Assembly (NCBI GenBank): GCA_029932445.1
Contig: JAOZQB010000003.1
Span: 1-32,629, forward strand
Source: Bacteroidales bacterium
GTDB lineage: Bacteria > Bacteroidota > Bacteroidia > Bacteroidales > JAADGE01
Direction of reading: 5' to 3'
DNA length: 32,629 nucleotides
Shown one piece after another: positions 1,268 to 32,629 of the stretch (positions are counted from its first letter, which is position 1; each line of letters begins with the position of its first letter). The position numbers and the translations under genes are program-made. The notes below the pieces were generated by a model. That model searched no databases. It saw only the letters and a program-made list of their open reading frames with translations, and was not told where the DNA came from.

Positions 1268-1350
1268 TGAGGGTAACATTTGTAAGTAAATCGTGTTTAC
1301 ATGCAAACATTACCTTTAATATTTAACAGTGATGTATAAAAACTGATAAA

Positions 1351-4449: not shown

Positions 4450-4484
4450 TGTTTGTCCGAAATTAAACAAAGAATACAAACAAA

Positions 4485-6713: not shown

Positions 6714-6782
6714 TATTTCTTTATATTTTTCCGTTGATTATTATGACATTATATGCAAATCGCAAGTTTATTACTGTGAAAA

Positions 6783-7955: not shown

Positions 7956-7998
7956 ATAATATTGAGATGTTTATTGATAATCAATAGCCATAGGAAAA

Positions 7999-10174: not shown

Positions 10175-10219
10175 AACAACATAAAAAAACCAGCATTTTG
10201 CTGGTTTTTTTATGTTGTT
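10175..10219. terminator. Long hairpin, probably a bidirectional intrinsic terminator for the HEPN cassette
   Basis: Perfect 21-bp inverted repeat AACAACATAAAAAAACCAGCA-TTT-TGCTGGTTTTTTTATGTTGTT with A7/T7 tracts. It overlaps the stop codon of the 10218..10694 gene. Confidence 0.85.
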
Positions 10220-10694: not shown

Positions 10695-10696
10695 AT

Positions 10697-11428: not shown

Positions 11429-14329
11429 TTAAACCAAAGCATCATACAAGACTTCAATCGGATGCAAAGCATCTCTGTTTGTTCCGTCTTTTATTTGATG
11501 GCGGCAACTGGTCCCGGGAGCGGCAATCGTAATATCTTCCGGTGTTTTTCTTATTGCCGGAAACAAAACCGTTTCTCCGATTTTCATCGATAATTCATAA
11601 TGCTCTTTTTCATACCCGAAACTGCCTGCCATTCCGCAGCACCCTGACGGAATTTCTTCTACCGTATAGTTTTCGGGAAACGATAAAATATATTTTGTGG
11701 GGTCGGTGCTTGCAATAGCTTTTTGCTGACAATGACCGTGAAGTTTTATATGTTTTGTATTTTTTGAAAATTCTTCTTTAGTAATTTTTCCGTTTTTCAT
11801 TTCTTTTGCCAGAAATTCTTCTGCCGTAAGTGCATTTATTGCAATCTTTTCAGCTGTTTCTTTCATCTTTTTATCTTTGAAAAAATCAGGATATTCGTCT
11901 CGAAAACTCAAAATCGTTGAAGGTTCTATTCCGATAAGCGGTGTTTCTTCCGTAATAATATCTTTTAAAATACGAATATTTTTTTCGGCAATTTGTTTTG
12001 CTTTTCTTATCAATCCTTTTGAAATATAGGTTCTGCCGCTTTCCGAAATATTCGGAATAACAACTTGATAGCCCAGGTTTTCAAACAACTTAATTGCAAT
12101 AATCCCAATTTCGGCATCATTGTAATTTGTAAATTCATCTGCAAACAAATAAATCTTTTTGCCTTTACCGTTTCTTGGATTTTTATATTGTTTTTTTAAT
12201 GTCTTTTTTGAAAGTTCGGGCATTTTCCTTTTTGTCGAGAATCCGATTAATTTCATTACGGGAACAGAAAAAATCTTACTTTTAAGGAAAACATTACTTA
12301 TTGACGGAGCTATTGAAAGGATTTTGTTAATATTAGTAATATTTGCTACCAATCGACTTCTTAACGGAATACCGTTTTTATCATAATATTTTTGTAAAAA
12401 TTCTGCTTTTAATTTTGCCACATCAACGTTTGCTTGACATTCTGTCTTGCACGCTTTACAAGAAAGGCAAAGATCAAGAATGTTGTACAAATCTTTATTA
12501 TTAAAAGGGTCTGTATCATTTGTGATAATTTCTCTCAACATATTTGCTCTGGCGCGTGTTGATTGATCTTCATTGCCTGAAGCTTTGTATGACGGGCACA
12601 TGGTTCCCCCTACTGCAAGCGTTCTTACACAATCACCCGCCCCGTTGCATTTTTCCGCAGCTCTTAAATACCCTTCGGTATCCGTGAAATCGAAAATGGT
12701 ATCAAAAGTTTTTGTTTCTTGTCCCGGTTCGTATCGCAAAAATTCATTCATGGGAGGCGTGTCGGTTATTTTACCTGGATTAAATATATTATGTTCATCC
12801 CAAGTTTTCTTAACGTATTTAAAAAGATTGTAAATTTTTTCACCGTACATTAAAGGAATAAATTCGCCTCTTAATCTGCCGTCACCGTGTTCGCCGCTTA
12901 AAGAACCCTTGTATTTTTTTACCAATTTTGCAGTTTCACGGGCAACTGTTCTGAAAAGTTCAACATCCTTTTTGTCTTTCAAATTCAAAACCGGTCTTAA
13001 ATGCAACTCTCCTGAACCTATGTGAGCATGATAAACGCATTCCAGATTATGTGAGCTGAGAATTTTTTGGAATTCTTCAATATATTCGGGAAGTTTGTTA
13101 ACCCTAACAGCAGTATCTTCCGTTAAACTAACCGATTTGGCATCGCCTTTCATATTTGCCAAAACACCCAATCCGGCTTTTCTCAAATCCCAAACTTTGT
13201 TTATGTCGTCATCCCAAATTACAGGAAAATGATAACCGTATCCGGCTTTGCGCATTTCTTTTTCCATGTTTTCGGCAATCTTATTGATTTCTTCTTTGCT
13301 TTCACGTGCAAATTCAATAATCAGAATTGAAGCAGGATTACCTTTCAGGAAAAAACGATTTTCATCAAGGGCTTTATTTTTTGCAGCCAATTCCAGAATC
13401 GTATTATCCATTAACTCTACCGCACCGGGTTTGTATTTCAGAGCAATTAAATTGGCATAAAAAGCATCATTAATTTTTTCGAAATGTGCACCTATAACAG
13501 CTACGTTTTTAGGCGGTAAATCAATGAGTTTCAGGGTAATCTCAGTTGTAAATGCCAACGTTCCTTCGGAGCCGGTCAATAATTTACAAAAATTGAACTT
13601 TTTATTTTTTTCCGAGAATATTTCTGTATTAAGAAGTAAATCAAGTGCATAACCCGTATTTCTGCGCGGAATTTCTTTATCGGGATATTCGTTTTCAATT
13701 TCTTCTTGTACTGCCTTATCCGATAAAATATCATTAATTTGATTATAAATTTTCCCTTCGAGATTTTGAAGTTTTAACTTTTCTCGAAACTCTTCTTTTG
13801 AAATTTCTCCGAAAGTAACTTCTGAAGTATCGCTCAAAATTGTTTTTATTGAATGCGTGTAATCTCGTGTACTTCCGTATATAATTGAGTGTAAACCGCA
13901 TGCATTATTACCTGCCATTCCGCCCATTGTACAACGATTTGCCGTTGATGTTTCGGGTCCGAAAAATATACCGTGAGGTTCCAAAAATAAATTTAAATCG
14001 GTAAGAATAACGCCGGGTTGTACCGTTACCAGCTTTTTCTCAACATCAAGATTCAGGATTTTGTTCATATATTTTGAAACATCAACGACAATCCCTTTTC
14101 CCGTAACTTGTCCGGCAAGTGAAGTTCCTGCACCTCTCGGTATAAGCGAAGTATTATTTTCTTTTGCAAAAGTGATTAACTTTTTGATATCCTCTGAATC
14201 TTTCGGAAAAGCAACTGCCACCGGTTTTTCTTTGTATGCTGATGCATCTGTAGAATAGATTATTCGATAAGTTTCATCAAAAAATAATTCGCCTTTAAGT
14301 TGTTCTTTTAGTGCAGATAATTGTGTCAT
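11429..14329 (-). CDS. FAD-linked oxidase / 4Fe-4S / CCG fusion (YdiJ or GlcD-GlcF-like D-2-hydroxyacid dehydrogenase)
   Basis: RGAGTSLAGQ, GSEGTLA, HAHIGSGELHLRP and SGEHGDG (FAD oxidase). CNGAGDC..CP and CLSCKACKTEC (Fe-S). HGHCQQ and GCCG (CCG domain). Confidence 0.88.
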   Translation of the reverse strand: MTQLSALKEQLKGELFFDETYRIIYSTDASAYKEKPVAVAFPKDSEDIKKLITFAKENNTSLIPRGAGTSLAGQVTGKGIVVDVSKYMNKILNLDVEKKLVTVQPGVILTDLNLFLEPHGIFFGPETSTANRCTMGGMAGNNACGLHSIIYGSTRDYTHSIKTILSDTSEVTFGEISKEEFREKLKLQNLEGKIYNQINDILSDKAVQEEIENEYPDKEIPRRNTGYALDLLLNTEIFSEKNKKFNFCKLLTGSEGTLAFTTEITLKLIDLPPKNVAVIGAHFEKINDAFYANLIALKYKPGAVELMDNTILELAAKNKALDENRFFLKGNPASILIIEFARESKEEINKIAENMEKEMRKAGYGYHFPVIWDDDINKVWDLRKAGLGVLANMKGDAKSVSLTEDTAVRVNKLPEYIEEFQKILSSHNLECVYHAHIGSGELHLRPVLNLKDKKDVELFRTVARETAKLVKKYKGSLSGEHGDGRLRGEFIPLMYGEKIYNLFKYVKKTWDEHNIFNPGKITDTPPMNEFLRYEPGQETKTFDTIFDFTDTEGYLRAAEKCNGAGDCVRTLAVGGTMCPSYKASGNEDQSTRARANMLREIITNDTDPFNNKDLYNILDLCLSCKACKTECQANVDVAKLKAEFLQKYYDKNGIPLRSRLVANITNINKILSIAPSISNVFLKSKIFSVPVMKLIGFSTKRKMPELSKKTLKKQYKNPRNGKGKKIYLFADEFTNYNDAEIGIIAIKLFENLGYQVVIPNISESGRTYISKGLIRKAKQIAEKNIRILKDIITEETPLIGIEPSTILSFRDEYPDFFKDKKMKETAEKIAINALTAEEFLAKEMKNGKITKEEFSKNTKHIKLHGHCQQKAIASTDPTKYILSFPENYTVEEIPSGCCGMAGSFGYEKEHYELSMKIGETVLFPAIRKTPEDITIAAPGTSCRHQIKDGTNRDALHPIEVLYDALV

Positions 14330-14384
14330 TACTTATTTGTTTGAATCGGATAAAGATAAAAGGTCTCTTATGTTTTTGAATAAA

Positions 14385-16013
14385 TCAATTCTTAACGGTA
14401 ATATTTACGGCTTTTCCTTCATTATGCAATCGGTCAACAGCCGTAACAGCAAAAGTATATTTTTTTCGGAATAATAATCGTCCTTTCGGAAGCTGAATCG
14501 TATTATTTCTTATGATTTTGAATATATTTTCAGGGTTTTCTAATGAACCGATTTGTTCTCCTTTGAATTTATAAACAACATAGTATGCAGCTGTATCAAT
14601 TGCTGTTTTTTCTTTTGAATAGGGTTGTGACCAAGTAAGATACTTTTTTCGTTTATTCTTTATTAAAATCAAATTTTCCGGTTTCCCGGGAGGTATTGTA
14701 TCTAAATAATCCATTGACGGAATTAATGCCGGGTATTTGAAAATGTCATTTTTTAAAGAGTCAATTACTCCGTTTGGATTTGTAAGGAAAAATTTTGCAC
14801 TGAAATAAATGCACCCTTTTATTTCAGGAAATTGTCTGTTAAGACGGTTTTGATTCGGGATTTCAGAAGGATTTTTCCATGCTTTATTGCTGTTAATTCT
14901 ATACAAACCTTGCCCGATATAAACTTGTTTTCCGTATGAATTATTTGCCCACCACTTTGCAAGAACATCGTATGCTGCTACTTTTTTTCCGATTTCCCAA
15001 TATAATTGCGGAGCAACATAATCAATCCAACCATTTTTTAACCATTTCAGTATATCGGCATATAGTCCGTCGTAATTTGTATAACCGTTGGTTGCAGAGC
15101 CGCGCGGATCTTCTTTTTTATTTCTCCATATTCCGAAGGGACTAATTCCGAATTTTACATAGGGTTTTGTGTGTTTTATGCTGTCACTCAGCATTTTAAT
15201 GATTAAGTCGACATTGTTGCGTCGCCAATCGCCTTTATCTGTAAAAAGTTTTGTTGTATCAGGAATTGTTTCCGTAATTAAATTAGAATCGGAATCCAAA
15301 ACATTAATCGTGATTAAACTGTCCGGAAATTTTTTGTTATATGTCACGAAATCTGCACTATCCGGAAAATCAATAACTTTTCCGGTATCGTATCTTCTTT
15401 TATAAGGATAAAAATAATCGTCAAAATGTACGGCATCAATATCATAACGGGTAACAACGTCTTGAATAATTTTCGTAACATAAGTTCTGACTTCCGGTAA
15501 TGCGGGGTTAAAAAATTTATGCGGTCCGTATGTAAAAAACCACTCGGGCTTTGTATTTGTGATATGATTTCTGTCAACTTGAGCTGTTTGGTATTTAAAA
15601 ACAGCTCTGTAGGGATTGAACCAAGCATGAAATTCCATATTTCGTTTATGGGCTTCTTTAATCATAAATTCCAAAGGGTCATAGTAGGGTTTGGGTGCTT
15701 TGCCTTGGGTTCCGGTCAGCCATTGCGACCATGGTTCATATTTTGAATAATAAAAAGCATCTGCTGCAGGACGTACTTGTACAATAACAGCATTTATCCC
15801 GGCCGATTGCATTACATTTAATAATTTAATAAACTCTTGTTTTTGTTGTTCCGTTGTTAAATTTGATTGAGAAGGCCAATCGATATTTGCAACAGTTGCA
15901 ATCCATGCAGCTCTCAGTTCATATTTCGGAGGAATATTTTTTTGACCAAAAGTATTGACGGCAAAAGACAATACAAACAGAAAGATTAAACTTTTATTAA
16001 ATAGAGTTTTCAT
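14385..16013 (-). CDS. GHL10 (glycosyl hydrolase-like 10; YddW/DigH-like) with signal peptide and C-terminal FN3-like domain
   Basis: ELRAAWIATVANIDWPS, QVRPAADAFY, HAWFNPYR, HFDDYFYPY, FGISPFGIW, IDYVAPQLYW and C-terminal YTFAVTAVDRLHNE. Hydrophobic N-terminus ending TFG-Q. Confidence 0.9.
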   Translation of the reverse strand: MKTLFNKSLIFLFVLSFAVNTFGQKNIPPKYELRAAWIATVANIDWPSQSNLTTEQQKQEFIKLLNVMQSAGINAVIVQVRPAADAFYYSKYEPWSQWLTGTQGKAPKPYYDPLEFMIKEAHKRNMEFHAWFNPYRAVFKYQTAQVDRNHITNTKPEWFFTYGPHKFFNPALPEVRTYVTKIIQDVVTRYDIDAVHFDDYFYPYKRRYDTGKVIDFPDSADFVTYNKKFPDSLITINVLDSDSNLITETIPDTTKLFTDKGDWRRNNVDLIIKMLSDSIKHTKPYVKFGISPFGIWRNKKEDPRGSATNGYTNYDGLYADILKWLKNGWIDYVAPQLYWEIGKKVAAYDVLAKWWANNSYGKQVYIGQGLYRINSNKAWKNPSEIPNQNRLNRQFPEIKGCIYFSAKFFLTNPNGVIDSLKNDIFKYPALIPSMDYLDTIPPGKPENLILIKNKRKKYLTWSQPYSKEKTAIDTAAYYVVYKFKGEQIGSLENPENIFKIIRNNTIQLPKGRLLFRKKYTFAVTAVDRLHNEGKAVNITVKN

Positions 16014-16040
16014 ATTAAATCGTTAAAAAGTTAAGATACA

Positions 16041-16859
16041 TTAAGAATTATTTATTTCCTCGTTATAACTGTCTACGGCTTTGCGAACAGAACCATGCAA
16101 AAGCAGAAGTCTTTTTGCTGCATCTGCCTCAATGTTTAATTCTTCTGCAATCATTATTGTTCCGCGTTCAACAAGTTTTTGATTTGTTAATTCCATGTCA
16201 ACCATTTTATTACCCTTAACTCTTCCCAGTTTTATCATTAAGGAAGTTGTTATCATATTTAAAACAAGTTTTTGAGCAGTTCCGGCTTTCATTCTTGTAC
16301 TTCCGGTAACAAATTCAGGGCCTACCACCGGAACTATGGCAATTTCTGCAACTTTAGAAACAGCTTCATCCGGATTACAAGTGATTGCTGCCGTTAATAT
16401 GCCGTTTTTGCTTGCATGTTCCAAACCTCCAACAACATAGGGTGTTGTCCCTGATGCCGCTATTCCCACAACAGTATCATTTTCATTGATATTCAATTGT
16501 TTCAGTTCTTCCCAGGATTTATTATAATCATCTTCTGCCGATTCAACTGCTTTTCGTATTGCGGAATCTCCTCCGGCAATCAGACCTACAACAACGCCTT
16601 GCGGGATACCGAATGTAGGCGGTATTTCTGAAGCATCAATGATTCCGAGTCTTCCGCTGGTTCCGGCTCCGAGATAAAATAAACGACCGCCTTTTTTCAT
16701 TCTCGGAATCAGCTTTTCAACAAAACTTTCGATTTGCGGAATAACTTTTTTTACGGCTTCATGTATTTTTGCATCTTCTTTATTAATGTTTGTTAATATT
16801 TCATTAACACTCATTTTTTCAAGATTATTGTATTTTGATGATTGTTCTGTTATCTTCAT
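16041..16859 (-). CDS. murQ: N-acetylmuramic acid 6-phosphate etherase
   Basis: GAGTSGRLGIIDASEIPPTFG, GIAASGTTPYV, GPEFVTGSTRMKAGTAQKLVLNM and GNKMVD. Confidence 0.97.
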   Translation of the reverse strand: MKITEQSSKYNNLEKMSVNEILTNINKEDAKIHEAVKKVIPQIESFVEKLIPRMKKGGRLFYLGAGTSGRLGIIDASEIPPTFGIPQGVVVGLIAGGDSAIRKAVESAEDDYNKSWEELKQLNINENDTVVGIAASGTTPYVVGGLEHASKNGILTAAITCNPDEAVSKVAEIAIVPVVGPEFVTGSTRMKAGTAQKLVLNMITTSLMIKLGRVKGNKMVDMELTNQKLVERGTIMIAEELNIEADAAKRLLLLHGSVRKAVDSYNEEINNS

Positions 16860-16886
16860 TTTATGTTCTTATATTTCTTATGTGAT

Positions 16887-18080
16887 TTATTGTATTTTTT
16901 TCCAATTAAAATAAGCATCAATTCCTGCACCTATTGCCGGTGCTTCTCTTAATTCGGAACTTACAATAATTTTATCCGAATCGGCGTAATGCAATTTTGC
17001 TTTTTCATCTAAAAGATCCGATTTTTTAATCAGTTCATTTAATTTCTTAATTACGGGTTTTCTTATTTCCGTGTAACCGGATTGCGACTCAAAAAGATCT
17101 CCCAATCTTTGTCCTATTATGATACGGTCAAAAACGTATTTGAGATAAGGATGATCGGATGATAATTTCGGACGCGTCGGATTTACAAATTTAAAAGTAT
17201 TACGAGAACCGGCATATAAGCCGGTAATTCTTTCAAATAATAACAAACTGATATTTTCAACAGCTGATTGTATCATTTTTTTTGCATCGGGATTTCCTTT
17301 GGCTGATAATTCTGCAATTTGTATGGGATAGATTCCTTTTTCATTGAGTTCGGAAACTTTTTTTCCTGCAATTTCTGCATATATTGATTGTAATCCGCCA
17401 ACAGAAGTGAAACGTTCAAGAGAGCGTCCGTCGGTACTTTTCATTTCCCAAGTCTTTGCCAACCAGTCTTTTGTTTCATCAAAAGGCAGCAACTTTCCGT
17501 TGAGTTTTAATGCATCTGCGACTCCGGTTCCTCCTCCGAGATAGTATGCATTTTTAATATTTTTGAATTTGCCGTCTTCCGAATAATTTTCACCAATTCC
17601 GCAATAATCTGCATCGCTTCCTAAATGAGCAATGGGTGTAACAAAGGTGATACCTGTATCGGTGAGTCTTTTTTCTAATTTGTCGGCATAGTCAATCATA
17701 CGAGGTCCGTTGGCAATAACTGAAATTCCGCGCTTATCTTTGGTTTTTAAACCCGGCATTCCTAATCCTACAACAATCTGATTTACACCGGATTGTTTGA
17801 CAACAGATTCGATAACTCTTGCACAAGCTTCAATATAAGTTGCAGCTTGTTTGTTTTCTTCTTCGGTAGGTTTTATAGTGCCGTTATCACGTTCGGCAAG
17901 TTGAACGGAAATTTCTGTCGGTTTAAAATTTGAGATGAATCCTTCAATTTCATTGTAAGAGCAATCGGCAGAAAACTTTCCTAATGAAAAGCGTTCAGTT
18001 TTTTTATTAAGTGTTAAGTTCCGAGCACTTACTTTTGTAGCACCGCCATCTATTCCGAGTAATAATATATTATCTTTCAA
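16887..18080 (-). CDS. Divergent ROK/ASKHA-family sugar kinase (candidate MurNAc/GlcNAc kinase)
   Basis: LLLGIDGGATK, GLGMPG, SDADYCGIGE, LGGGTGV, SLERFTS and APAIGA. The start is more likely the TTG at 18080 (MKDNILLLGID) than 18119. Confidence 0.72.
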   Translation of the reverse strand: MKDNILLLGIDGGATKVSARNLTLNKKTERFSLGKFSADCSYNEIEGFISNFKPTEISVQLAERDNGTIKPTEEENKQAATYIEACARVIESVVKQSGVNQIVVGLGMPGLKTKDKRGISVIANGPRMIDYADKLEKRLTDTGITFVTPIAHLGSDADYCGIGENYSEDGKFKNIKNAYYLGGGTGVADALKLNGKLLPFDETKDWLAKTWEMKSTDGRSLERFTSVGGLQSIYAEIAGKKVSELNEKGIYPIQIAELSAKGNPDAKKMIQSAVENISLLLFERITGLYAGSRNTFKFVNPTRPKLSSDHPYLKYVFDRIIIGQRLGDLFESQSGYTEIRKPVIKKLNELIKKSDLLDEKAKLHYADSDKIIVSSELREAPAIGAGIDAYFNWKKIQ

Positions 18081-18099
18081 CGTATTATATTTATTTAAT

Positions 18100-18175
18100 T
18101 TCAACCATAAGGAACACAATATTTATCATAAAGTACACAAAGCTGATTTCTTCGTTTCCTTCGTAAGTAGTGTTA
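18100..18175. repeat. Degenerate CACAAAG-type intergenic repeat remnant
   Basis: AACCATAAGGAACACAAT...CATAAAGTACACAAAG...CTTCGTTTCCTTCGT resembles, from memory, the ACCACAAAGnnCACAAAG/CTTTGTG REP-like elements of Bacteroidota. Only one copy is in the window. Confidence 0.3.
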
Positions 18176-18193
18176 ATTTTATAGTTAAAGTAA

Positions 18194-19753
18194 TTATTTT
18201 TGATTTAGTTTAATTCTTCTTAAAATGGTTTCTTTTCTCAAAAAATCTTTGGCTTCATCATTGCGGTCAACTGTTGCTTGGTCAATGCTGTGATCTGTCC
18301 CTCCCGAATGACGTATGACTTCATAAATTGCATCCCAAACTCTTCCGATACGATGTTTTTCACTAATTTTTAATACCATGCCGTAATCTTCGCCATAATT
18401 TCTGGAATAGGGCTCTTGGTTTACGCTAAATCCGATATTACGTATCAGTTGAATCGGGATTGATCTGGGTGCACCGGCACCGCCGATTCGTAATAGGTTA
18501 TTACGTCCGTTTTCTTCTGTCCATTCATCATGTGTAACAACAGGAAGATCTTCCATTCTGTTTAATTCTCCCTTATCTTTCATTTCCCATACTTCATAAG
18601 ATCCGATAACCATGCCGATATTGGGGTCTTTTTCATAAACAGCCAAAATTTTTTCAACAGCATCCGGTTTCAGACGATCGTCAGAATCCAATTGTACATA
18701 GTATTCTCCTTTTGCATGCCATGCACCGATATTTAAACACAATCCGAGATTATTAATGTCGTAAACCAATAATTGAACGGCAGGTTTGTTTGAATTATAT
18801 TTATCTCCCCCGGGCAAATAGCGTTTTACAGCTTCCACAGTAGGATCATTTTCTCCGCCGTTAACAACAATTATGGCTTCCACATCCTGAACCGTTTGTG
18901 CTTGTATGCTGTCAATTGCCATACCGGTAAATTTAGGTCTGTTATTAACGGGTATGATAACAGATGCTTTCAGTGTGGTCTCTTTGGGTGCTGCAGGCCG
19001 AGATCCGTAATGTTCACCGGCTTCTAAATTAGCACCGATTCTTCTTAAATGTTTTTCAAGTACTTTTTCAGATTCTGATTGACTTTCTTTTGAAGCCAAA
19101 AGATAATCAAATACATTTTGTGATTTGCCTTTTGCTTTCACGGTATATAATGAACCGGCATAACGATTTGCAATATGTACTAACTTGTATTTTTCAGAAA
19201 CTTTAAGTCTAAGGTCATATATTGTATTATATTTTAAAGTTTCATCACAGTAACCGACTGATTCTAATGCTTTTCTGTTAAAAAAATATACTTTCCCGTA
19301 ATCCTGATTATCTCGTACCCTTCCGATATGATGCTTCAGAAGATGTATTTCTTTAATTTGATTATTTTCATTTATCTCATAATCTCCGTAAATAAGTCCG
19401 AAATCCTTTTCCTGATGTGCTGTCAGCAAGCAAAGATCAATCGTTGCTTGTTTCAAAACAATTTCTGCTTCTCTGTTATCAATATACATTAAATATTGAG
19501 AGTCAGTCACTTTAAATGCTTGGTTTAAGCTTTCGCCCAAAGTAGCTTGGTTATTTATAAAGTGAACAGCTAATTCAGAAGTGTTTTGCTCAGCTATTTT
19601 TGCAGACAAATCGGAATCTTCTCCGATAATTACTACTTCAATATTTTTACTTGTTTGCTTAAAAATACTTTTCACGGTACGGAGAAACCCGTCTTTGCCG
19701 TAAGGTGCTTCCTTCGGGAAATGCAAAATTATACTAACTTTTGCTTGTTTCAT
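18194..19753 (-). CDS. Glycosyltransferase family 2 protein with two GT-A domains (paralogue B)
   Basis: ASVIIPVNNR, YVQLDSDD (DxD), HDEWTEENGRNNLLRIGGAGAPRS and YGEDY. The N-terminal half is a degenerate GT-A (GRVRDNQDYG). Confidence 0.88.
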   Translation of the reverse strand: MKQAKVSIILHFPKEAPYGKDGFLRTVKSIFKQTSKNIEVVIIGEDSDLSAKIAEQNTSELAVHFINNQATLGESLNQAFKVTDSQYLMYIDNREAEIVLKQATIDLCLLTAHQEKDFGLIYGDYEINENNQIKEIHLLKHHIGRVRDNQDYGKVYFFNRKALESVGYCDETLKYNTIYDLRLKVSEKYKLVHIANRYAGSLYTVKAKGKSQNVFDYLLASKESQSESEKVLEKHLRRIGANLEAGEHYGSRPAAPKETTLKASVIIPVNNRPKFTGMAIDSIQAQTVQDVEAIIVVNGGENDPTVEAVKRYLPGGDKYNSNKPAVQLLVYDINNLGLCLNIGAWHAKGEYYVQLDSDDRLKPDAVEKILAVYEKDPNIGMVIGSYEVWEMKDKGELNRMEDLPVVTHDEWTEENGRNNLLRIGGAGAPRSIPIQLIRNIGFSVNQEPYSRNYGEDYGMVLKISEKHRIGRVWDAIYEVIRHSGGTDHSIDQATVDRNDEAKDFLRKETILRRIKLNQK

Positions 19754-19845
19754 TATTTTATTCTTTTTAGTTTTTGAATTTTTATATTAAATTGTTCCTG
19801 CTTTTCTTCATTAAAAATTAAAACAAAAATACCAGATATTACATA

Positions 19846-22465: not shown

Positions 22466-22497
22466 ATACTCGAAAACTGCTTTTACAAAAACAATTA

Positions 22498-23964: not shown

Positions 23965-23998
23965 GTGTTTATTTTTATAATTTTCAAAGGTCACATGG

Positions 23999-24018
23999 CC
24001 TGCCTGCCGGTAGGCAGG
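23999..24018. repeat. 20-bp GC-rich palindromic REP-like element CCTGCCTGCCGGTAGGCAGG
   Basis: Near-perfect palindrome (one mismatch) that stands out against the AT-rich background. It translates as PAYRQAG, a short repeat I recognise from Bacteroidota and other genomes. Confidence 0.7.
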
Positions 24019-24124
24019 GAACACCCGCATGTGAACTTTATTTAATATATTTATTTATGAAACTGCATTAGTCATTCACTTGTGTGTTAAGCCTTTATAC
24101 CTGGTGTTTCACATTAACATATTT

Positions 24125-24173
24125 ATTCAAATTCGGCTGTTTGGAAATTGAGTTCAAACAGCCGAATTCGAAT
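24125..24173 (-). terminator. Stem-loop just downstream of susD (terminator or mRNA-stabilising hairpin)
   Basis: Perfect 14-bp stem AATTCGGCTGTTTG (24130-24143) / CAAACAGCCGAATT (24155-24168), extendable by 4 bp past one mismatch. No clear U-tract on the minus strand. Confidence 0.6.
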
Positions 24174-24182
24174 TAAAGGTTT

Positions 24183-25679: not shown

Positions 25680-25698
25680 ATAATATCGGATTTAAATG

Positions 25699-28600
25699 TT
25701 AAAAATTGAATCTTAATGAAAAACCTATATTTCTTGCAGTAGGCATTGCAGCATATTCTTGTCCGAGACCGTTATTTTGATTGGTAAAAGACGATTCGGG
25801 ATCAATATTAGGAACACCGCTGTATATCAGCCAAAGATTTCTGCCGGTAAGGGAGAAACTCGCACTATTTATTTTTATTTTTTTCAGGAACGATTTAGGA
25901 ATATTAACTCCGATAATCATTTCTCTCAGTTTTATATAACTTGCATCATAAATACTTAATTCGGTGATACCGTTCCATTTTCCCTGATGCCAATATACTT
26001 GAGGATCGAGACCTCTGTTGTTGGGAGTTCCGTCAGGAAAGACACCTTCGGGAACATAACCTACAGGTGTGCCGTCTGCTTTCATTCCGTTTAATTGTTC
26101 TTCTTCAGTTGCAGCATACCACGATTCTCTTCCTTCAAGAGTATTAACAAATTGACCGTTGTCATTACCGTATCGGTTGGTTTTGGAATATATATCGCCG
26201 CCCATTTGTACTCCGACGGTAAAACTTAAATAAAAAGCTTTATATTTAATTGAATTCACAATACCGCCTATCCAATCGGGATTAATATTTCCGAGTACTT
26301 TGGTATCTGTTCCGCTTGAAATATATAAACCTGTTGAAGGATCAATTAAATGTTTTCCGGAAACGGAATCTGTTAAAATATAAGTACCGACAATATTTCC
26401 GTACGGATCACCCGGACGAGCTTCAATTATGATTTGGCTTGTGCTTGTTATAGGGTATGTATTAATATCTTCAGCAAGGCTTATTACCTTTGATTTGTTT
26501 TTCGCGAAATTGATATTTATATCCCAACTAAAATCTTTATTCTTAATCGGTTGAATTGTTAAAAGTAATTCAATCCCTTTGTTTTGAATTTCTCCGGCAT
26601 TAATGACTGCTTTATTATAACCGGTTGCTTTAGAAATTTCTGTACTAAGAATTTGGTTTACAGATATACCTTTATAGATTGATACGTCTATACCAACTTT
26701 ATTTTGAAAAAATCTTAAATCAGACCCTGCTTCCCAAGATCTTGTTATTTCAGGTTTTAAATCATATAAGGGTTTGATATTGTTTAAATGGTTTACCGGT
26801 AATTCTCCGAAACTTCCGGATAAATAAACCGGTTCAAGCATATAAGGATCAGCATCGTTACCTACTTTAGCCCACGAAAGTCTTACTTTTCCAAAAGAAA
26901 TAATTTTTGAGTTAAGTTTTAATGCTTCAGAAAATATAAAACCGGTACTTATTGCCTGATAAAAATAAGAGTTATTAATTGACGGTAAACTTGATGACCA
27001 GTCATTCCTTGCATTGATGTCTATGTAAAGGTATGATTTATAGGCGATTTGAGAAAACCCATACAAAGAATTAATCGTTTTTCTTATCACAGTTGTTCCC
27101 GTTGAATTATCAAGTTTATTTGTATAATTATTTAATGAGAAAAAATTAGGAACGGCAAAACCTTTAATTGCAGAAGAACTTATATCAATTTTACTTGCTG
27201 AGTTATTTCCTCCGAAACTTAATGAGAAATCAATTTTTCCGAATGTTTTTTTACCTGTTAATAAGAAATCACTATTCATTGACCTGTAACCGATCCATGT
27301 TTCAGAATATTCACCATTCGGAGCACGCATTGAATAAGATGCAATTCTCCGAAATCTTCTGTCAGTATGAAAATCGGTACCTGTCCTCAACATAAGACTC
27401 AACCAGTCCGTAATTTGAAAGTCTGATTTTACTGTTCCCAGTATTCTGTCTCTTGTATCATTATTTGTATTTTCATAGGATTCCCAATAGGGGTTTGTGT
27501 GCCAACTGTCAGATTTGTAATAGTTCTGTTCATAACCGTAAGCGTCTTTATAATCGTCTCTTAATTTATTAATGTCGATATTTCTGGGCATCCAAATAAA
27601 TGTTCTGGCACCGCTTCTGGAATCTCCTTGTCCGGGTCGATTAAAAGCATCATTTCTGTCATAGTTTACTTTGGCATCGATATTTATTTTTTTGGTCAGT
27701 TTTGAAGTTCCTCTTAAGGTTATTGAGTTTTTCTTATACCAACTGTTTGGTCTTAATCCTTTGTTATAAAGGTTTGTATATGACATTCTGAATGTTGCTT
27801 TTTCTGAACCGCTGTTTATTGCAAAAGAGTTTACGGAGGTTATTCCGCGTTCATAATAATTTTTTACATTATCGGGGTGCGGTTCATAAGGTCGAATTTC
27901 TCCGTTCCAATTCAGAATTAAACGTCCGTCCATTTTCGGTCCCCAGCTCTGGTATGAATTCGGTGAATATTCTATTGTGTCCCAACCCGGATACATTAAT
28001 CTTTGTATCGAATCTAATGCAATTCTCGGAATATATCCGTTACCGCCTAAGCCGTATTCATTTTGATAATCAGCTTGAATGTCAGCAATGTCAACAGTTG
28101 TTGACATGTTTACGGATACTCCGATTCCTTTTTTAACGGTTCCTTTTTTTGTCGTAATCATAATGACGCCGTTGGCAGCTTTTGAACCATATAAAGCAGC
28201 TGCATTAGGGCCTTTTAAAACGGTAATACTTTCAATGTCATCCGGATTTAAATCTGAAATACCGTCACCGTAATCATGTCCGCCTAACCAGCCGGCAGAT
28301 TGATAGTTTGTGTTGTCAATCGGTATTCCGTCAACAACAATAAGCGCTTGATTGTTTCCGCTTATAGATGAATTTCCTCTTATTACGACTCGTGACGAAC
28401 CTCCGGCACCACCTGCAGTTTTAGATATTTGAACACCTGCAATTTTCCCTGAGATTGAGTTTAAGATATTAGTTTCGCGTGCTTCGGTTAAATCATTACC
28501 TCCGATTTCAGAAGCAGAATATCCGAGTGCTTTTTTTTCTCTTTTAATTCCCAGTGCCGTAACAATGACCTCATCTAATTCGGCTGTTTCTGTTTTCAGT

Positions 28601-28884
28601 TCAACATTAATAACGGATTTGTCTCCGACATTAATTTCTTGCGTAACATAACCGAAATATGAAAAACTTAAAATAATATTGTTTCCCTCATTTACGGTTA
28701 AAGAATATTTCCCTTCAAAATCGGTCATAATTCCTTGTGCCGTTCCTTTCAGAATTACGCTGACTCCCGGTATTGCCGAATTTGAATCTGCATCAGTTAC
28801 TTGCCCGCTTATTGTTCTTTGTTGGGCATAGATATTTGATACTAAAGCGGTAAATAAAATTAGTATGAACAATTTTTTTTTCAT
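25699..28884 (-). CDS. susC: SusC/RagA family TonB-dependent transporter
   Basis: Signal peptide, N-terminal extension, LDEVIVTALGIKREKKALGYS, plug DLNPDDIESITVLKGPNAAALYGSKAANGVIMITTKKG, RNDWSS, LKPE and C-terminal Phe. Confidence 0.96.
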   Translation of the reverse strand: MKKKLFILILFTALVSNIYAQQRTISGQVTDADSNSAIPGVSVILKGTAQGIMTDFEGKYSLTVNEGNNIILSFSYFGYVTQEINVGDKSVINVELKTETAELDEVIVTALGIKREKKALGYSASEIGGNDLTEARETNILNSISGKIAGVQISKTAGGAGGSSRVVIRGNSSISGNNQALIVVDGIPIDNTNYQSAGWLGGHDYGDGISDLNPDDIESITVLKGPNAAALYGSKAANGVIMITTKKGTVKKGIGVSVNMSTTVDIADIQADYQNEYGLGGNGYIPRIALDSIQRLMYPGWDTIEYSPNSYQSWGPKMDGRLILNWNGEIRPYEPHPDNVKNYYERGITSVNSFAINSGSEKATFRMSYTNLYNKGLRPNSWYKKNSITLRGTSKLTKKINIDAKVNYDRNDAFNRPGQGDSRSGARTFIWMPRNIDINKLRDDYKDAYGYEQNYYKSDSWHTNPYWESYENTNNDTRDRILGTVKSDFQITDWLSLMLRTGTDFHTDRRFRRIASYSMRAPNGEYSETWIGYRSMNSDFLLTGKKTFGKIDFSLSFGGNNSASKIDISSSAIKGFAVPNFFSLNNYTNKLDNSTGTTVIRKTINSLYGFSQIAYKSYLYIDINARNDWSSSLPSINNSYFYQAISTGFIFSEALKLNSKIISFGKVRLSWAKVGNDADPYMLEPVYLSGSFGELPVNHLNNIKPLYDLKPEITRSWEAGSDLRFFQNKVGIDVSIYKGISVNQILSTEISKATGYNKAVINAGEIQNKGIELLLTIQPIKNKDFSWDININFAKNKSKVISLAEDINTYPITSTSQIIIEARPGDPYGNIVGTYILTDSVSGKHLIDPSTGLYISSGTDTKVLGNINPDWIGGIVNSIKYKAFYLSFTVGVQMGGDIYSKTNRYGNDNGQFVNTLEGRESWYAATEEEQLNGMKADGTPVGYVPEGVFPDGTPNNRGLDPQVYWHQGKWNGITELSIYDASYIKLREMIIGVNIPKSFLKKIKINSASFSLTGRNLWLIYSGVPNIDPESSFTNQNNGLGQEYAAMPTARNIGFSLRFNF

Positions 28885-29030
28885 CTGTATATTTTATAAT
28901 TAATATTTAATTAGTCAGACAGAATTTTTAATAATCAAATTAATGTAATTAAAAAATTAGTCAATAAATGAATTTTCCATTAAAATTATAAAAAGAAATA
29001 TGTGTTGTTAATTTTGTTTTATTATAAAAA

Positions 29031-29078
29031 GTATCCGCTCAAAAAAGGATTATTAATAATCCTTTTTTGAGCGAATAC
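29031..29078 (-). terminator. Intrinsic terminator of the T9SS protein gene
   Basis: 24-bp arms GTATCCGCTCAAAAAAGGATTATT / AATAATCCTTTTTTGAGCGAATAC. The single mismatch becomes G-U on the minus-strand RNA, and TTTTT follows on the minus strand. Confidence 0.85.
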
Positions 29079-29098
29079 GATAATTAACGGTTATAAAT

Positions 29099-32000
29099 TT
29101 AATCTGCTTTAATAAATCTTGATGTTGATGATAATCCGTTATTGTTATAGAATGTAATTAAATAAATACCGGTTTTTAAATTTTTGGTATTTAAGCTTAG
29201 TTCTGAGGAATTATTATTTTCAACTATCATAACATTTTGACCCGTTATATTTGTAATTACGATTTTTTTAACCTTATCTGTATTTTTTACAAATAATTCT
29301 GAGTTAACAGGGTTTGGATATATACGAATGTTGTCAGACCAAATATTTTCAACACTTAAGTATGTAACCGGACCGTACCAATCACTTAAAGCAGGTATTC
29401 CGGTAAAATAATCACTTCCCCCCGTAAGAGCAACAGGTGTTACTTCAAATGCGATATATTTATCGTGTAAATCATCTGTAACTGTTAAAGTGGAATTGGT
29501 TGCTCCGAGAACCGTATTTATATTAGTTCCCGTATTATCATCTGCTCGGTACCATTTATATATTGAAGTACCTTCAAGGTCACCGTTTGCGTCAGAATAT
29601 GTATAACTTCCTGTTAATACAGCGTCAACATTAAGATTTCCGGTGATTGTTACATCTGTTGCTTCCGGAGCGGCAGCATTAACAAGATTCAATACATCAG
29701 CCGGACCGAATGCAGCAAGCGGCATTCCGTCAAAAGCAGCTACTGTTCCGTTACCGTTATAAGCAATGGTTACTTCATCACCCTCTGAAACAGCAGAAGC
29801 TAATACAAATGTGATTGTTTCATCAACACTTGAAATACCGGTAACTGCAATAGGAGTTCCGGCAGCTATAACTGTCCAGAATTCATTTCCTGAAACAGAA
29901 GCATCATCAATAATTTTAGTAAAATCGGCAGAAACAGATAAGCCGTCTAAAGATGTTTCTGCAGAAACAAATTCCGGTAATACCATTTCTCCTTGATATC
30001 TGCCAAGTCCAAGATTCGTTTCTAAAATATATGTATTGTAAAAATCTCCGTCAACAGTCACATCAACTTCACCATACCATCCGTCAGTAATTGCTACATA
30101 CTCAGATGAATCAACTATTTGAAATGGTTGAGCCGTAATATCGGCGACAATGACACGTGCTCCTTTTTCTGAACCTGACCTTTGTGCTTGAAAGAAAGCA
30201 GCCATCATACGTCCTTTATAGTTAAATACATTCGGAGATGTTGCTTGATGACCTGAAATTGAATATTCATCAATACCTAAAATTGAAGTGATACTGTCTC
30301 CTGTACTACTATATATTGTAGGAGTAAATCCTTTTGCAGAAACTAATATATTTGCATTTGCATCAAGACTCAACGGAGAAGCTGCTGGTAATAAGTTTGT
30401 CGTGTTATGTAAAGTAATAATCTCAGCTGCTCCCGGAGTACCACCTGTAATGACCCAACGAACAACTTTGTCTGAACTTTGAACTGCTGCCATTACAATT
30501 GCATTTCCGGATACATCACCTGTTACTGTAAATTTTCCGATACGACCTAAAGAAGGATCCATTACAGAAAGCCATTCTGTTGGTGCTGCAGATTCATCTG
30601 CCCATTTATAAACAACAAATGGAGAGGTACTTGCATTAAGATTAAGTCCGCAAGATAAAATTTGTCCGTCGTCAGAAACTTCTACATCATTAATCGGAAA
30701 AAAACCGGCTGTAACTCCATCAGTATTCATTTTTCCAATGAAAGCCCCGTCATTTTTATCAATTATAAGTATATCACTTCCTGTCTTTCTACTTGCAACA
30801 TAAAGATGGTTTGCTCCTACTGCAAAACCGCGTTCAGTTGTTCCTGTTCCCAGATACCAAGGTAAAGCACCATACTTTTCGGATCCGACCCACATTCTTT
30901 CTAAGCCGTCTGTATTTGTGGAAGCAATTGAAGCATCAGCAGTATATGCCGACATCACAGTTGTTCCGACAGTTGTCGTTCCGCTGAGGGCAACCGGAGT
31001 TACTTCAACAGCAAAAAACTTTCCGATTTCGGCATCCGTTACAAGATAAGATCTTTTAACAGCTCCGGAAATTGCAGTTTGGTTAGTACCTGCAGCATCA
31101 TCTGCCACATACCATTGGAAAATAGATTCTCCTTCCGGATCAGCATTATAATCTGAGTAATCATAATATGCACTGAGTAATGTTTCTGATTCAGGAGTTC
31201 CGGAAACAGCAACATTCTCAGCTACGGGAGCTTCATCTATATAAGGTGCTATTGCTCCGACAGTAACCGCAAAAGCTTCAATACCGGCAGTACCGTCTTC
31301 TTGTACAGGTATTACACCAAAGAAAACAAATTTTCCTTCTTCGGCAGCAGTCAGAGTATAAGTCATTTCAACAGCTCCCGCGATAGCAGCTTGATTCGTA
31401 CCTCCGGCATCATCTGCTGTATACCATTGATATGTTGAAGCACCTTCGGGATCACCGTTAGCATCAAAATATGTATATGCTCCTGTAAGGACCATTCCAA
31501 CCTCTTCGATTCCTGAAATTGTAACATTGTTTGCAACAGGAGGAGCAGGAGCTGTAATAACAGCCTCCGCAGAATATGTACTTAAAACAGGATTACCAAT
31601 CAACAAACTACCTGTAGCTGCAACCGGAGTTACTTGAAAAGCAATATGTTTACCAACTTCATTTTCTGTTAAAGTATAAGTAAGATCTGTTGCTCCTACA
31701 ATTTCAACGGCATTTGTACCGGCTGCATCATCAGCAGCAAACCATTGATATGTTGAAGCACCTTCAAGGTCACCATCTGAATCAGAATATGTATATGTCG
31801 CTGTTAAAAGTTGCCCGGATGTTAGAACTCCTGTGAAAGCTACATTACTTGCTGTCGGAAACTCTTCAGATGAAGAAACAATTTGTGCTGATGGTGAACC
31901 AAGTACAGAAGTTCCTGTAAGAGTTGTCCCGCCTGATGCAACAGGTGTTACTTCAAATTTTACATATTTATTTACATCTGTTGCTGCAAGTGTATAAGTA

Positions 32001-32629
32001 AGAGCTGTTGCTCCTGCTATTTCTGTATATGTACCTTCGGGAGTATCGCTGTTTAGCCAGCGAAAAGTTGATGTTCCTTCGGGATCTCCGTTAAAATCAA
32101 TATATGTATACGATGCCGTAAGAACGACTCCTTCTTGAGGATTTCCTACAACTTTGATACCTGTGGCAATCGGTGCTGCATCAGTTGAAGCAAGCATTTT
32201 TATATAGTTACCACCGGATAAAGAATAAACAGCATAGGCTCCTTCAGGATTAACAACAATTGTTTGTTCTTGACCGTCACCATATTCAGAAGGCCAACCG
32301 GGAGCAACCGGTGCTGTTCCTGCTATGGTTTCAACAAATTCAGTTGCAGTAATATTTGAAAAATCAGTATTTGCACTTGTAATATCAATGATATGAAATG
32401 CTCCTCCGTCTGAAACACATAAATAAGTATTAGCACCGGCGGTAAATTGTTTAACATCTCCTGTTGTTCCTGTAAATAAAGCAGGATTAATACTGCCTAC
32501 AATATTACCTGCTCCATCAATAAAAGTAGGTGTTGTTGCAGAATTACTGTACCAGAATCCGTCGGAAATTCTTGTTCCGACAGCATTAATATGAACCCCG
32601 GTTCCTCCGGTTACTCCGTTTAAAGTTAG
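29099..32629 (-). CDS. Large T9SS type-A-sorted surface protein (5'-truncated): five AIR9/A9-like Ig repeats, DUF4623-like beta-propeller region, SwmB-like domain, CTD
   Basis: The frame stays open to the window end (LTLNGVTGGTGVHINAVG...), so the ATG at 32197 is internal. CTD: IRIYPNPVNSEL...LKTGIYLI...SRFIK. Repeat: LT.YTY.D.NGD.EG.S.YQW. Propeller-like: ERGFAVGANHLYVASR. Confidence 0.88.
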   Translation of the reverse strand, partial: LTLNGVTGGTGVHINAVGTRISDGFWYSNSATTPTFIDGAGNIVGSINPALFTGTTGDVKQFTAGANTYLCVSDGGAFHIIDITSANTDFSNITATEFVETIAGTAPVAPGWPSEYGDGQEQTIVVNPEGAYAVYSLSGGNYIKMLASTDAAPIATGIKVVGNPQEGVVLTASYTYIDFNGDPEGTSTFRWLNSDTPEGTYTEIAGATALTYTLAATDVNKYVKFEVTPVASGGTTLTGTSVLGSPSAQIVSSSEEFPTASNVAFTGVLTSGQLLTATYTYSDSDGDLEGASTYQWFAADDAAGTNAVEIVGATDLTYTLTENEVGKHIAFQVTPVAATGSLLIGNPVLSTYSAEAVITAPAPPVANNVTISGIEEVGMVLTGAYTYFDANGDPEGASTYQWYTADDAGGTNQAAIAGAVEMTYTLTAAEEGKFVFFGVIPVQEDGTAGIEAFAVTVGAIAPYIDEAPVAENVAVSGTPESETLLSAYYDYSDYNADPEGESIFQWYVADDAAGTNQTAISGAVKRSYLVTDAEIGKFFAVEVTPVALSGTTTVGTTVMSAYTADASIASTNTDGLERMWVGSEKYGALPWYLGTGTTERGFAVGANHLYVASRKTGSDILIIDKNDGAFIGKMNTDGVTAGFFPINDVEVSDDGQILSCGLNLNASTSPFVVYKWADESAAPTEWLSVMDPSLGRIGKFTVTGDVSGNAIVMAAVQSSDKVVRWVITGGTPGAAEIITLHNTTNLLPAASPLSLDANANILVSAKGFTPTIYSSTGDSITSILGIDEYSISGHQATSPNVFNYKGRMMAAFFQAQRSGSEKGARVIVADITAQPFQIVDSSEYVAITDGWYGEVDVTVDGDFYNTYILETNLGLGRYQGEMVLPEFVSAETSLDGLSVSADFTKIIDDASVSGNEFWTVIAAGTPIAVTGISSVDETITFVLASAVSEGDEVTIAYNGNGTVAAFDGMPLAAFGPADVLNLVNAAAPEATDVTITGNLNVDAVLTGSYTYSDANGDLEGTSIYKWYRADDNTGTNINTVLGATNSTLTVTDDLHDKYIAFEVTPVALTGGSDYFTGIPALSDWYGPVTYLSVENIWSDNIRIYPNPVNSELFVKNTDKVKKIVITNITGQNVMIVENNNSSELSLNTKNLKTGIYLITFYNNNGLSSTSRFIKAD
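30923..32176 (-). repeat. Four tandem ~105-aa Ig-like (A9-like) intragenic repeats, with a fifth copy near 29365-29673
   Basis: Repeated protein motif P.A..V...G....G..LT..Y.Y.D...D.EG.S..W..ADD..G....I.GA....Y.LT....GK...F.V.PV. At the DNA level ACCATTGATATGTTGAAGCACCTTC occurs twice. Confidence 0.85.

Follow-up and report, generated by a model that had tools for sequence, protein, structure and literature searches.

Our analysis of a 32,629-nt stretch of contig C302 from a Bacteroidales metagenome-assembled genome (MAG), hereafter the window, identified a gene cluster around a SusC/SusD pair that is probably a polysaccharide utilization locus (PUL) for the glycan backbone of foreign peptidoglycan. 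The genome, labeled G000 (~3 Mb, 92.6% complete), is a Prolixibacteraceae MAG, and the sequencing runs that carry this stretch are labeled as hydrothermal vent and marine sediment metagenomes; no RNA run was listed among them, a blank that counts neither for nor against expression. An original prediction, made from the sequence of the window, had proposed that eleven co-oriented genes, running from a type IX secretion system (T9SS) surface protein through susC and susD to a set of N-acetylmuramic acid (MurNAc) salvage enzymes, serve to forage on the walls of other bacteria. Based on open reading frame (ORF) listing and on Pfam and NCBIfam cut-offs, with folds assigned by AlphaFold2 (AF2) models and Foldseek, we confirmed all eleven genes and their families on the minus strand across positions 11429-32629. 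Foraging on foreign walls is supported by the nearest SusD clade, by the co-occurrence of these genes within the family, and by secreted peptidoglycan hydrolases encoded on an abutting contig, C209. With the latter included, the locus is two-armed and spans ~36 kb, and is thus larger than the gene run of the window. The analysis directly shows what the genes encode, their synteny and co-occurrence among genomes, and the folds and predicted localization of their products; every substrate and the order of the reactions are inferred.

The susC gene (25699..28884, minus strand, as are the other genes and the hairpins of the cluster) encodes a SusC/RagA-type TonB-dependent transporter with Plug and CarboxypepD_reg domains (TIGR04056, 630 bits against a cut-off of 368). 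The co-oriented susD gene (24183..25679), adjacent to it with a gap of 19 nt, encodes a SusD-like lipoprotein (SusD-like_2, E 2e-86). We aligned 35 SusD homologues, among which the lipobox cysteine is nearly invariant, scanned one genome per species, and retained the best 80 loci of the 595 stretches encoding a relative. The window proteins were then run by tblastn against these 80 loci, and hits covering less than 30-40% of the query were disregarded, both here and in the counts given below for the loci of the protein K410. The SusD tree holds 84 rows; L122 was omitted, since just 43% of its SusD lies inside its stretch. In this tree, a clade of 12 rows (SH-aLRT 100) unites the window with its genus-level relatives, the genome G016 of the same family, and six sister loci. 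Seven of the 12 rows are linked to peptidoglycan genes, another four are insufficiently covered by their short flanks, and the row of G016 is followed by gyrB. Peptidoglycan genes are adjacent in seven of the eight rows whose downstream sequence extends for 3 kb or more.

SusD proteins at least 44% identical to that of the window occur in eight loci, two of which are almost without downstream sequence and six of which are the sisters (L005, L006 and L008-L011), from MAGs labeled Bacteroidaceae, Bacteroidales, Salinivirgaceae and Bacteroidota. All six sisters share the gene order Ig-repeat T9SS protein, 243-aa protein, Amidase_3/Big_5 protein (779 aa), SusC, SusD and secreted GHL10 protein. The amidase gene, of the MurNAc-L-Ala amidase type, lies directly before susC in each of them; the secreted GHL10 protein (~1025 aa) carries FN3/Ig domains and a T9SS sorting domain, and the Ig-repeat proteins are 42-46% identical to that of the window. 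A BadF-type MurK-like kinase and MurQ come next in four sisters and are fused in L011. At 30-40% SusD identity, 72 loci were found, 62 with at least 3 kb downstream; in these 62, tblastn found no MurQ, AmpG, MurK or GT2 homologue, and it found a GHL10 homologue in two (L025 and L034). The idea that murQ and ampG recur beside the closest SusC/SusD homologues was therefore borne out for the near clade and not for the distant homologues: the near clade combines GHL10 with Amidase_3 in every sister locus and MurK with MurQ in four, and the distant homologues have neither MurQ nor AmpG. Among the families listed (25 of 48), the first gene downstream of the distant susD homologues encodes GH2 (19/62), Laminin_G_3 (8), a T9SS protein with a C-terminal sorting domain (CTD; 8), DUF5018 (5), GH92 (3) or PNGase F (2). 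The ORFs picked for this tally can belong to the wrong strand where GC content is high, and the L034 pick lies opposite its GHL10 match. By this gene content, the distant loci look like N-glycan-type loci.

In L008 (Salinivirgaceae), a gene for a MurU-like nucleotidyltransferase (L008:14881-15606; 145 bits against a cut-off of 250) is located ~260 nt past the secreted GHL10 gene and replaces MurK-MurQ, with an aminotransferase gene further on. This arrangement is a hint of a variant for the anabolic salvage of UDP-MurNAc; the scan for MurU did not include L009.

The co-occurrence seen in the near clade extends to the window's own family (f1), represented by 25 genomes including G000. The SusD orthologue, MurQ and the secreted GHL10 protein were each found in exactly G000, G009, G012 and G016, the GHL10 orthologues being at least 69% identical. 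These four carriers are kin from two genera and do not represent four independent events. AmpG was found in G000 (one match), G012 and G016 but not in G009, which is 77% complete, and K410 was found in G000, G009 and G012. Across the other 24 genomes, MurQ is present in three and AmpG in two, and the fact that most relatives are without both argues against a housekeeping recycling role. In G016, SusCD, MurK-MurQ, AmpG, GT2-A and the secreted GHL10 protein are encoded on separate contigs, i.e., they co-occur without adjacency. G009 has two SusC-SusD copies of the clade (contigs C224 and C206; 91% and 83% identity to the window SusD), and both contigs stop 53 nt past susD.

A second, unrelated SusCD pair, only 28% identical to that of the window, was identified in G159, a genome of the same order and another family. 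Its locus (L245; G159:C1:79000-98900) has the order MurK, MurQ, SusC, SusD, two unknown genes, an 849-aa GHL10 protein, another unknown gene and a NAGPA-domain protein. The SusD of L245 has 628 aa, NAGPA is a phosphodiester glycosidase domain, and three proteins of the locus are without a Pfam family. The near clade, the co-occurrence within the family and this second lineage tie SusCD to peptidoglycan genes, contrary to the caveat in the original prediction that the link may be only positional.

The Ig-repeat T9SS gene (29099..32629 within the window) encodes a protein with Por_Secre_tail, AIR9 Ig repeats and an SWM repeat, and its sorting domain is of type A (TIGR04183, 45.8 bits against a cut-off of 23). 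Contig C302 continues 577 nt past the window, to 33,206 nt, and its last 55 nt exactly match the first 55 nt of C209. The ORF reaches contig coordinate 33205 and reads across the C302-C209 join as a protein of 1368 aa, for which C209 provides the start codon and the signal peptide, with 14 of 23 residues matching the G012 orthologue. We therefore rejected both a T9SS gene cut by the contig end and a gap of ~500 nt between the window and C209. Orthologues of the Ig-repeat protein (42-69% identity) are encoded upstream of susC in L004, L006, L008, L009, L011, L085 and L088, and the gene is kept at this position in every clade locus with sufficient upstream sequence. The protein shares with the secreted GHL10 protein of C209 its Ig repeats (47-52% identity), a ~160-aa module (41%) and the CTD, which makes it a non-catalytic relative of the binding part of that enzyme. 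Its conserved position and these common modules speak against a purely positional association of the T9SS gene as well, and the protein is probably a non-catalytic glycan-binding partner of SusCD.

Directly upstream of the Ig-repeat gene, C209 encodes a 460-aa T9SS protein with 74% and 57% identity to the products of the same-position genes of G012 and G016, respectively. Beyond it lies a divergent arm that is also present in G012. Its first gene encodes a 775-aa NagB-like protein, whose Atlas neighbors are 'glucosamine-6-phosphate deaminase' clusters, some with PIG-L, and the next a TolB-like propeller. The arm also encodes a secreted 1161-aa GHL10 protein with DUF5018 and Ig repeats and a secreted Amidase_3 protein with Big_5; a T9SS CTD was found on both of these enzymes and on the 460-aa protein. 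The amidase gene is interrupted by a run of 99 N (C209:9079-9177), on which basis we rejected a split pseudogene. The GH3/beta-lactamase-like gene of G000 (contig C132) is also broken by an N run; such runs are scaffold gaps or masked stretches, easily misread as gene breaks. Homologues of the 460-aa protein also occur in the non-peptidoglycan SusCD loci L022, L026 and L029 (SusD identity 34-35%), and PULs in general, not just those for peptidoglycan, may use this surface-protein family as an accessory.

The enzyme block comprises eight genes, from GT2-A (22498..23964) to a dehydrogenase (11429..14329), with successive gaps of 32, -8 (an overlap), 92, 74, 27, 27 and 55 nt. The spacing of 92 nt or less agrees with the ~110 bp or less proposed before. 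Based on their N-termini, SusC, SusD (by its lipobox) and the GHL10 protein of the block (by a signal peptidase I (SPI)-type signal, with no Cys) are exported, and the two GT2 proteins, the GNAT protein, K410, MurQ and the dehydrogenase look cytoplasmic. Signal peptides or CTDs are thus restricted to the outward-facing parts of the locus.

MurQ (16041..16859), the N-acetylmuramic acid 6-phosphate etherase, is above the equivalog cut-offs (TIGR00274, 312.1 bits against 302; NF003915, 371.9 bits against 168). The gene directly upstream of murQ in the window's genus encodes K410 (16887..18119), a 410-aa protein with no Pfam family. Its AF2 model (pLDDT 91) matched ROK glucokinases and N-acetylglucosamine (GlcNAc)/ManNAc kinases in Foldseek (E 5e-15 to 1e-11), and all of the top hits were ROK kinases or repressors. 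The residues D19, G20, G21, A22 and K24 are invariant, and we take this N-terminal stretch to be the phosphate-binding DxGxT/K-type motif. The Pfam ROK domain was not detected in the window protein, and a few of its homologues carry PF00480. K410 belongs to a large family of ~395-aa proteins, named ROK or NBD/HSP70 sugar kinases in those sources that give them a name, and the called gene is 405 aa elsewhere. K410 is a divergent ROK-fold sugar kinase by its modeled structure, so the earlier label of 'kinase' was apt despite the missing Pfam hit, and MurNAc or an amino sugar is its candidate substrate. In G016, G031, G159 and others, the position before murQ is taken by MurK, and a search with the L006 MurK found no BadF-type homologue in G000, as far as this 92.6% complete genome goes; together, these results suggest that K410 has displaced MurK. 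A role as AnmK substitute was rejected, as G000 has AnmK, which is encoded elsewhere in this genome, as are MurB and NamZ (the latter on C201).

We surveyed the neighbors of K410 in 80 metagenome loci. GT2-B is encoded directly upstream of K410 in 49 of the 58 loci with at least 1 kb upstream, a SpoIID-domain protein directly downstream in 56 of 65, AmpG within 3 kb in 30 of 51, and NamZ in 23 of 80. K410 was rejected as a general partner of MurQ, which is present in 2 of the 80 loci. A SusD homologue (P0006) and a K410 homologue (P0126) both have 87,949 nt given as their longest contig, which is no more than a hint. In L155, the SpoIID-domain protein (L155:11183-12544) is encoded between K410 and AmpG and is without a signal peptide, and in L197 (L197:9938-12493) it is fused to the ROK-fold kinase K410. 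A cytoplasmic SpoIID-like protein is unexpected, since the family is known from extracytoplasmic wall remodeling. In G000, a partial SpoIID-like gene is located at the end of contig C110.

GT2-A and GT2-B (18194..19753) both match the Pfam GT2 family and are paralogous, with 33% identity. The AF2 model of GT2-B (pLDDT 88) consists of two GT-A-like halves and resembles K4 chondroitin polymerase (2z86), heparosan synthase 2 (8vh8) and LARGE1, with template modeling (TM) scores of 0.3-0.4 that are low because of domain placement; GT2-A, a soluble protein, is assumed to share this tandem GT-A fold. A DSDD motif is invariant in both paralogues, besides several other invariant motifs, and is found in the C-terminal half only; no invariant acidic pair was observed in the aligned N-terminal half. 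GT2-A-type proteins were present in 51 of 301 sampled genomes of the phylum, and orthologues with 45-55% identity were examined for neighbors in 19 loci, with AmpG nearby in 10, MurQ in three and SusCD in one. We read both GT2s as tandem GT-A proteins, tightly linked to AmpG across phyla.

The GNAT protein (21530..22465) contains two GNAT stretches in tandem, and its best sequence match in the PDB is 5KF1 (E 3e-10, residues 74-288), a weak similarity. According to the available text of PMC10936415, 5KF1 is the GlmA of Clostridium acetobutylicum, and the GNAT protein is a candidate GlmA-like glucosamine/glucosaminide N-acetyltransferase. The GNAT-AmpG gene pair also occurs in L148. The AmpG-like permease of the major facilitator superfamily (MFS; 19846..21537), for which TIGR00901 is the best family, has eight transmembrane-like windows and lies among peptidoglycan genes here and in many other loci; it is predicted to be the inner-membrane importer of peptidoglycan disaccharides. 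The 542-aa GHL10 protein (14385..16013; PF02638, 258 bits) matches Cwp19 (PDB 5oq2) with an E-value of 2.9e-101 and, with an SPI signal and no T9SS CTD, is a predicted periplasmic glycan-strand hydrolase or lytic transglycosylase. The last gene of the block, which follows the GHL10 gene in G009 and G012 also, encodes a fusion of FAD_binding_4, FAD-oxidase_C and Fe-S/CCG domains. Among solved structures it is closest to LctD, glycolate oxidase and D-lactate dehydrogenase, and the protein appears to be an FAD-linked D-2-hydroxyacid dehydrogenase with a GlpC/GlcF-like Fe-S domain, a candidate D-lactate dehydrogenase.

Under the proposed PUL function, the T9SS-anchored 460-aa and Ig-repeat proteins would bind sacculus fragments at the surface, a capacity that the secreted 1161-aa GHL10 protein may share through the same modules; the T9SS-anchored Amidase_3 would remove stem peptides, and the secreted GHL10 would cut the denuded strands. 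SusD and SusC would import the resulting oligosaccharides across the outer membrane. In the periplasm, the 542-aa GHL10 protein would trim them, probably with NamZ and the GH3/beta-lactamase-like fusion encoded elsewhere, and the AmpG-like permease would take in disaccharides of the GlcNAc-MurNAc type. In the cytoplasm, the GlmA-like GNAT protein would re-acetylate glucosamine residues, and the disaccharide would be split, the two tandem GT-A proteins being the candidates for this step. K410 would phosphorylate the released sugar, MurQ would turn MurNAc-6-phosphate into GlcNAc-6-phosphate and D-lactate, the FAD/Fe-S enzyme would oxidize D-lactate, and the NagB-like/PIG-L-related protein heading the divergent arm would move GlcNAc-6-phosphate towards fructose-6-phosphate.

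A bolder version, which we regard as rather unlikely, holds that the GT2s run degradatively, so that cytoplasmic phosphorolysis or UDP-dependent reversal splits GlcNAc-MurNAc in place of NagZ, that K410 is a new MurNAc kinase displacing MurK, and that the locus is complete from the surface to pyruvate. The only GH3 protein of G000 is exported, with a signal peptide and a fused beta-lactamase-like domain; thus, no cytoplasmic NagZ was found in this genome.

The junction between susD and GT2-A requires caution. A copy (23953..24035) of an interspersed repeat of ~80 nt with a GC-rich palindrome is located between susD and the true start of GT2-A. The repeat has 38 matches in G000, including the window copy and one at C209:4192-4273; several copies sit at contig ends, and a 5- to 15-fold depth spike was observed at the repeat in four metagenome runs. 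It probably causes many assembly breaks in the genus. The first 22 codons of the longer GT2-A ORF (to 24030) fall in the repeat, and the true start is most likely the ATG at 23964, which gives a protein of 488 aa. As the original prediction had described, hairpins stand between the T9SS gene, susCD and the enzyme genes: a terminator-like hairpin with a 20-bp stem followed by a T run (29031..29078) lies between the T9SS gene and susC, and a stable 19-bp stem-loop without a clear U tract (24125..24173; region z-score -6.1) lies directly 3' of the susD stop codon and is possibly an attenuator or an mRNA-stabilizing element.

Several observations weigh against a PUL for peptidoglycan. Over positions 21000-32629, the contigs of four runs from four studies break within the repeat at ~23957-23996 and resume at ~24256, and none of the listed pieces from these runs bridges the susD-GT2-A junction. 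The G009 and G012 contigs end 53-141 nt past susD, the G012 enzyme contig begins inside the GNAT gene, and no GT2-A orthologue was found in G012 or G009. Given the repeat and these breaks, a single assembly supports the placement of susCD directly beside the enzyme block. The hairpins part the T9SS gene, susCD and the enzyme block, and a single transcript is not required. The usual partners of K410 in its 80 loci are GT2-B, a cytoplasmic SpoIID-like protein and AmpG, with MurQ and SusC/D as rare as two and one, respectively, and in G016 the Ig-CTD, SusC and SusD trio is followed by gyrB, with no enzymes. No hybrid two-component system (HTCS), extracytoplasmic function (ECF) sigma/anti-sigma pair or SusR was seen among the ORFs scanned in the window or C209. 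Three family assignments are below their cut-offs: the AmpG-like permease (TIGR00901, 154 bits against 350; PRK11902, 98 against 656), the NagB-like protein (NF002557, 201 bits) and the dehydrogenase, which scores 646.5 bits with the model of the D-2-hydroxyglutarate dehydrogenase YdiJ against a cut-off of 1350 and has a domain architecture in common with YdiJ. The functional link between susCD and the enzyme block rests instead on the nearest SusD clade, the phyletic pattern, the C209 extension and the second SusCD lineage.

The repeat at the junction where the contigs of relatives break, the hairpins between the units, the G016 susCD without adjoining enzymes and the near-constant absence of SusCD from AmpG/GT2 modules (present in 1/80 K410 loci and 1/19 GT2-A loci) would all fit a different arrangement, in which the enzyme block recycles the cell's own wall and SusCD and the T9SS gene, adjacent by chance or mis-assembly, serve another glycan. 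We consider this quite improbable, given that the sister SusD clade is surrounded by peptidoglycan enzymes in all six loci, that SusD, MurQ and the secreted GHL10 protein share one set of four carriers among the 25 family genomes, that a secreted GHL10 and an amidase are encoded on the abutting C209, and that most relatives are without AmpG and MurQ, which would be odd for a housekeeping route. It is unlikely, too, that wall synthesis, and not carbon and energy supply, is the chief purpose of the MurNAc and GlcNAc gained through the locus, as it is in Tannerella forsythia, a MurNAc auxotroph. The gene content resembles the T. forsythia gtf-gtf-lytB-ampG-namZ-murTKQ operon, as it appears in the available text of PMC5388701 and bioRxiv 2021.12.02.470905, the MurU-like gene of L008 stands in place of MurK-MurQ, and GT-A enzymes would suit anabolism; however, G000 has MurB, and MurQ, the D-2-hydroxyacid dehydrogenase and the NagB-like gene all indicate breakdown. 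Wall synthesis and carbon use are, moreover, not mutually exclusive.

Least probable of all, and in our view very unlikely, is another amino-sugar polymer as the target, such as chitin/chitosan, poly-N-acetylglucosamine (PNAG), N-glycans or a lactyl-ether exopolysaccharide, with the MurNAc genes as a side stream. The distant SusD homologues (30-40% identity) do belong to loci with GH2, GH92 and PNGase F, Pfam describes the GHL10 family in generic terms, and GlmA-type enzymes acetylate chitosan oligomers too. Nevertheless, no chitinase, GH20, GH18 or GH2 was seen in domain scans of the window or C209, and Amidase_3, the Cwp19-like GHL10, MurQ and the MurK of the sister loci are peptidoglycan-specific families.

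We found no description of a SusC/SusD locus dedicated to peptidoglycan in the searchable literature, outside whose coverage most subscription journals fall, nor of the combination of genes reported here, in line with the original prediction. In the available text of a survey of 13,537 PULs (Lapebie et al.; PMC6499787), the peptidoglycan-targeting families GH23, GH24, GH25 and GH73 are strongly under-represented in PULs, yet occur in several. The T. forsythia operon Tanf_08345-08385 comprises genes for a 'xanthan lyase', gtf, gtf, lytB, ampG, namZ1, murT, murK and murQ, and in the model put forward for it, peptide-free strands are processed in the periplasm and disaccharides enter via AmpG; the available portions of these papers name no outer-membrane importer (PMC5388701, PMC7670621, bioRxiv 2021.12.02.470905). 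In the last of them, the NamZ preprint, the accessible text states the functions of the GT genes to be unknown, and the terms 'outer membrane', 'TonB' and 'Sus' each have 0 occurrences. The window locus is similar to this operon in being a Bacteroidota cluster with two putative GT2s, AmpG and MurQ for foreign peptidoglycan, and the K410 module of GT2-B, SpoIID, AmpG and NamZ mirrors its gtf-gtf-lytB-ampG-namZ part. It differs in that MurT, lytB (SpoIID) and namZ are absent from the window locus (MurT was not searched for elsewhere), and in that a BadF-type MurK was not found and a ROK-fold kinase, a GlmA-like GNAT protein, a periplasmic GHL10 and a D-2-hydroxyacid dehydrogenase are present. 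The most important difference lies in SusC/SusD, the three surface proteins of the T9SS type, and the GHL10 and amidase that are secreted.

Similar to canonical Sus-type PULs, the locus combines a susC/susD pair with surface binders, surface endo-acting enzymes, periplasmic trimming and an inner-membrane permease; unlike them, its predicted substrate is peptidoglycan, its GHL10 and Amidase_3 enzymes are not of the usual GH families, and no regulator was seen. The chitin locus of Flavobacterium johnsoniae uses the T9SS-secreted ChiA and is thus comparable in employing T9SS cargo for an insoluble GlcNAc-containing polymer. In E. coli, the AmpG-NagZ-AmpD-AnmK-MurQ recycling pathway also involves import by AmpG and cleavage by MurQ to GlcNAc-6-phosphate and D-lactate. 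In contrast to the window locus, it handles the cell's own turnover products and needs neither an outer-membrane importer nor secreted hydrolases. The GNAT protein has the tandem architecture of C. acetobutylicum GlmA, with weak similarity; GlmA acts in wall recycling. Among the relatives of GHL10, Cwp19 of C. difficile is titled a lytic transglycosylase (PMC6016235), and DigH of E. coli is treated, in the available text of PMC12288456, alongside amidases, which free the glycan backbone of its peptides. Both remodel the wall of their producer, whereas in the window system one GHL10 would be periplasmic and the other T9SS-secreted with binding modules, in a nutrient-uptake context.

The remainder of the window flanks the locus on the side of the dehydrogenase gene. 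Downstream of it on the minus strand, positions 5262-11170 encode two ~157-aa proteins without a family, an acyl-CoA ligase of the AMP-binding type that resembles FadD11 at a score below cut-off, a 390-aa protein that weakly matches GNAT, and a CrtD/CrtI-like desaturase, possibly a pigment or lipid cluster, with no link to the locus seen. At positions 3-5207, on the plus strand, the 1032-aa R subunit of a type I restriction system is encoded along with a fragment of an M78 (IrrE-like) peptidase, an uncharacterized 167-aa protein and a metallopeptidase resembling YgjP; these genes look like a defense islet beside the locus. No Rfam family reached its gathering score in the window or C209, and a sigma-70 promoter scan, with 83 sites against 81.3 expected from shuffled sequences, was uninformative.

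Peptidoglycan is a large pool of the carbon and nitrogen in bacterial necromass, and the vent and marine sediment labels of the runs fit a necromass-feeding lifestyle. To our knowledge, GHL10 and Amidase_3 are not among the GH families counted by PUL predictors, and such loci may therefore look enzyme-poor and be overlooked. The cytoplasmic chemistry of the GT2s and the kinase is potentially the most novel part of the locus, and our analysis isolates three conserved families of unassigned activity in cell-wall sugar metabolism, namely the tandem GT-A proteins, the ROK-fold kinase and the cytoplasmic SpoIID-like protein. Were the degradative role of the GT2s and K410 true, the module of GT2-B, K410, cytoplasmic SpoIID-like protein and AmpG, recurring in 80 metagenome loci, would be an unrecognized and widespread branch of cell-wall sugar metabolism. 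The SusCD clade described here, in turn, is a concrete candidate for the missing outer-membrane step of the Tannerella-type scavenging model.

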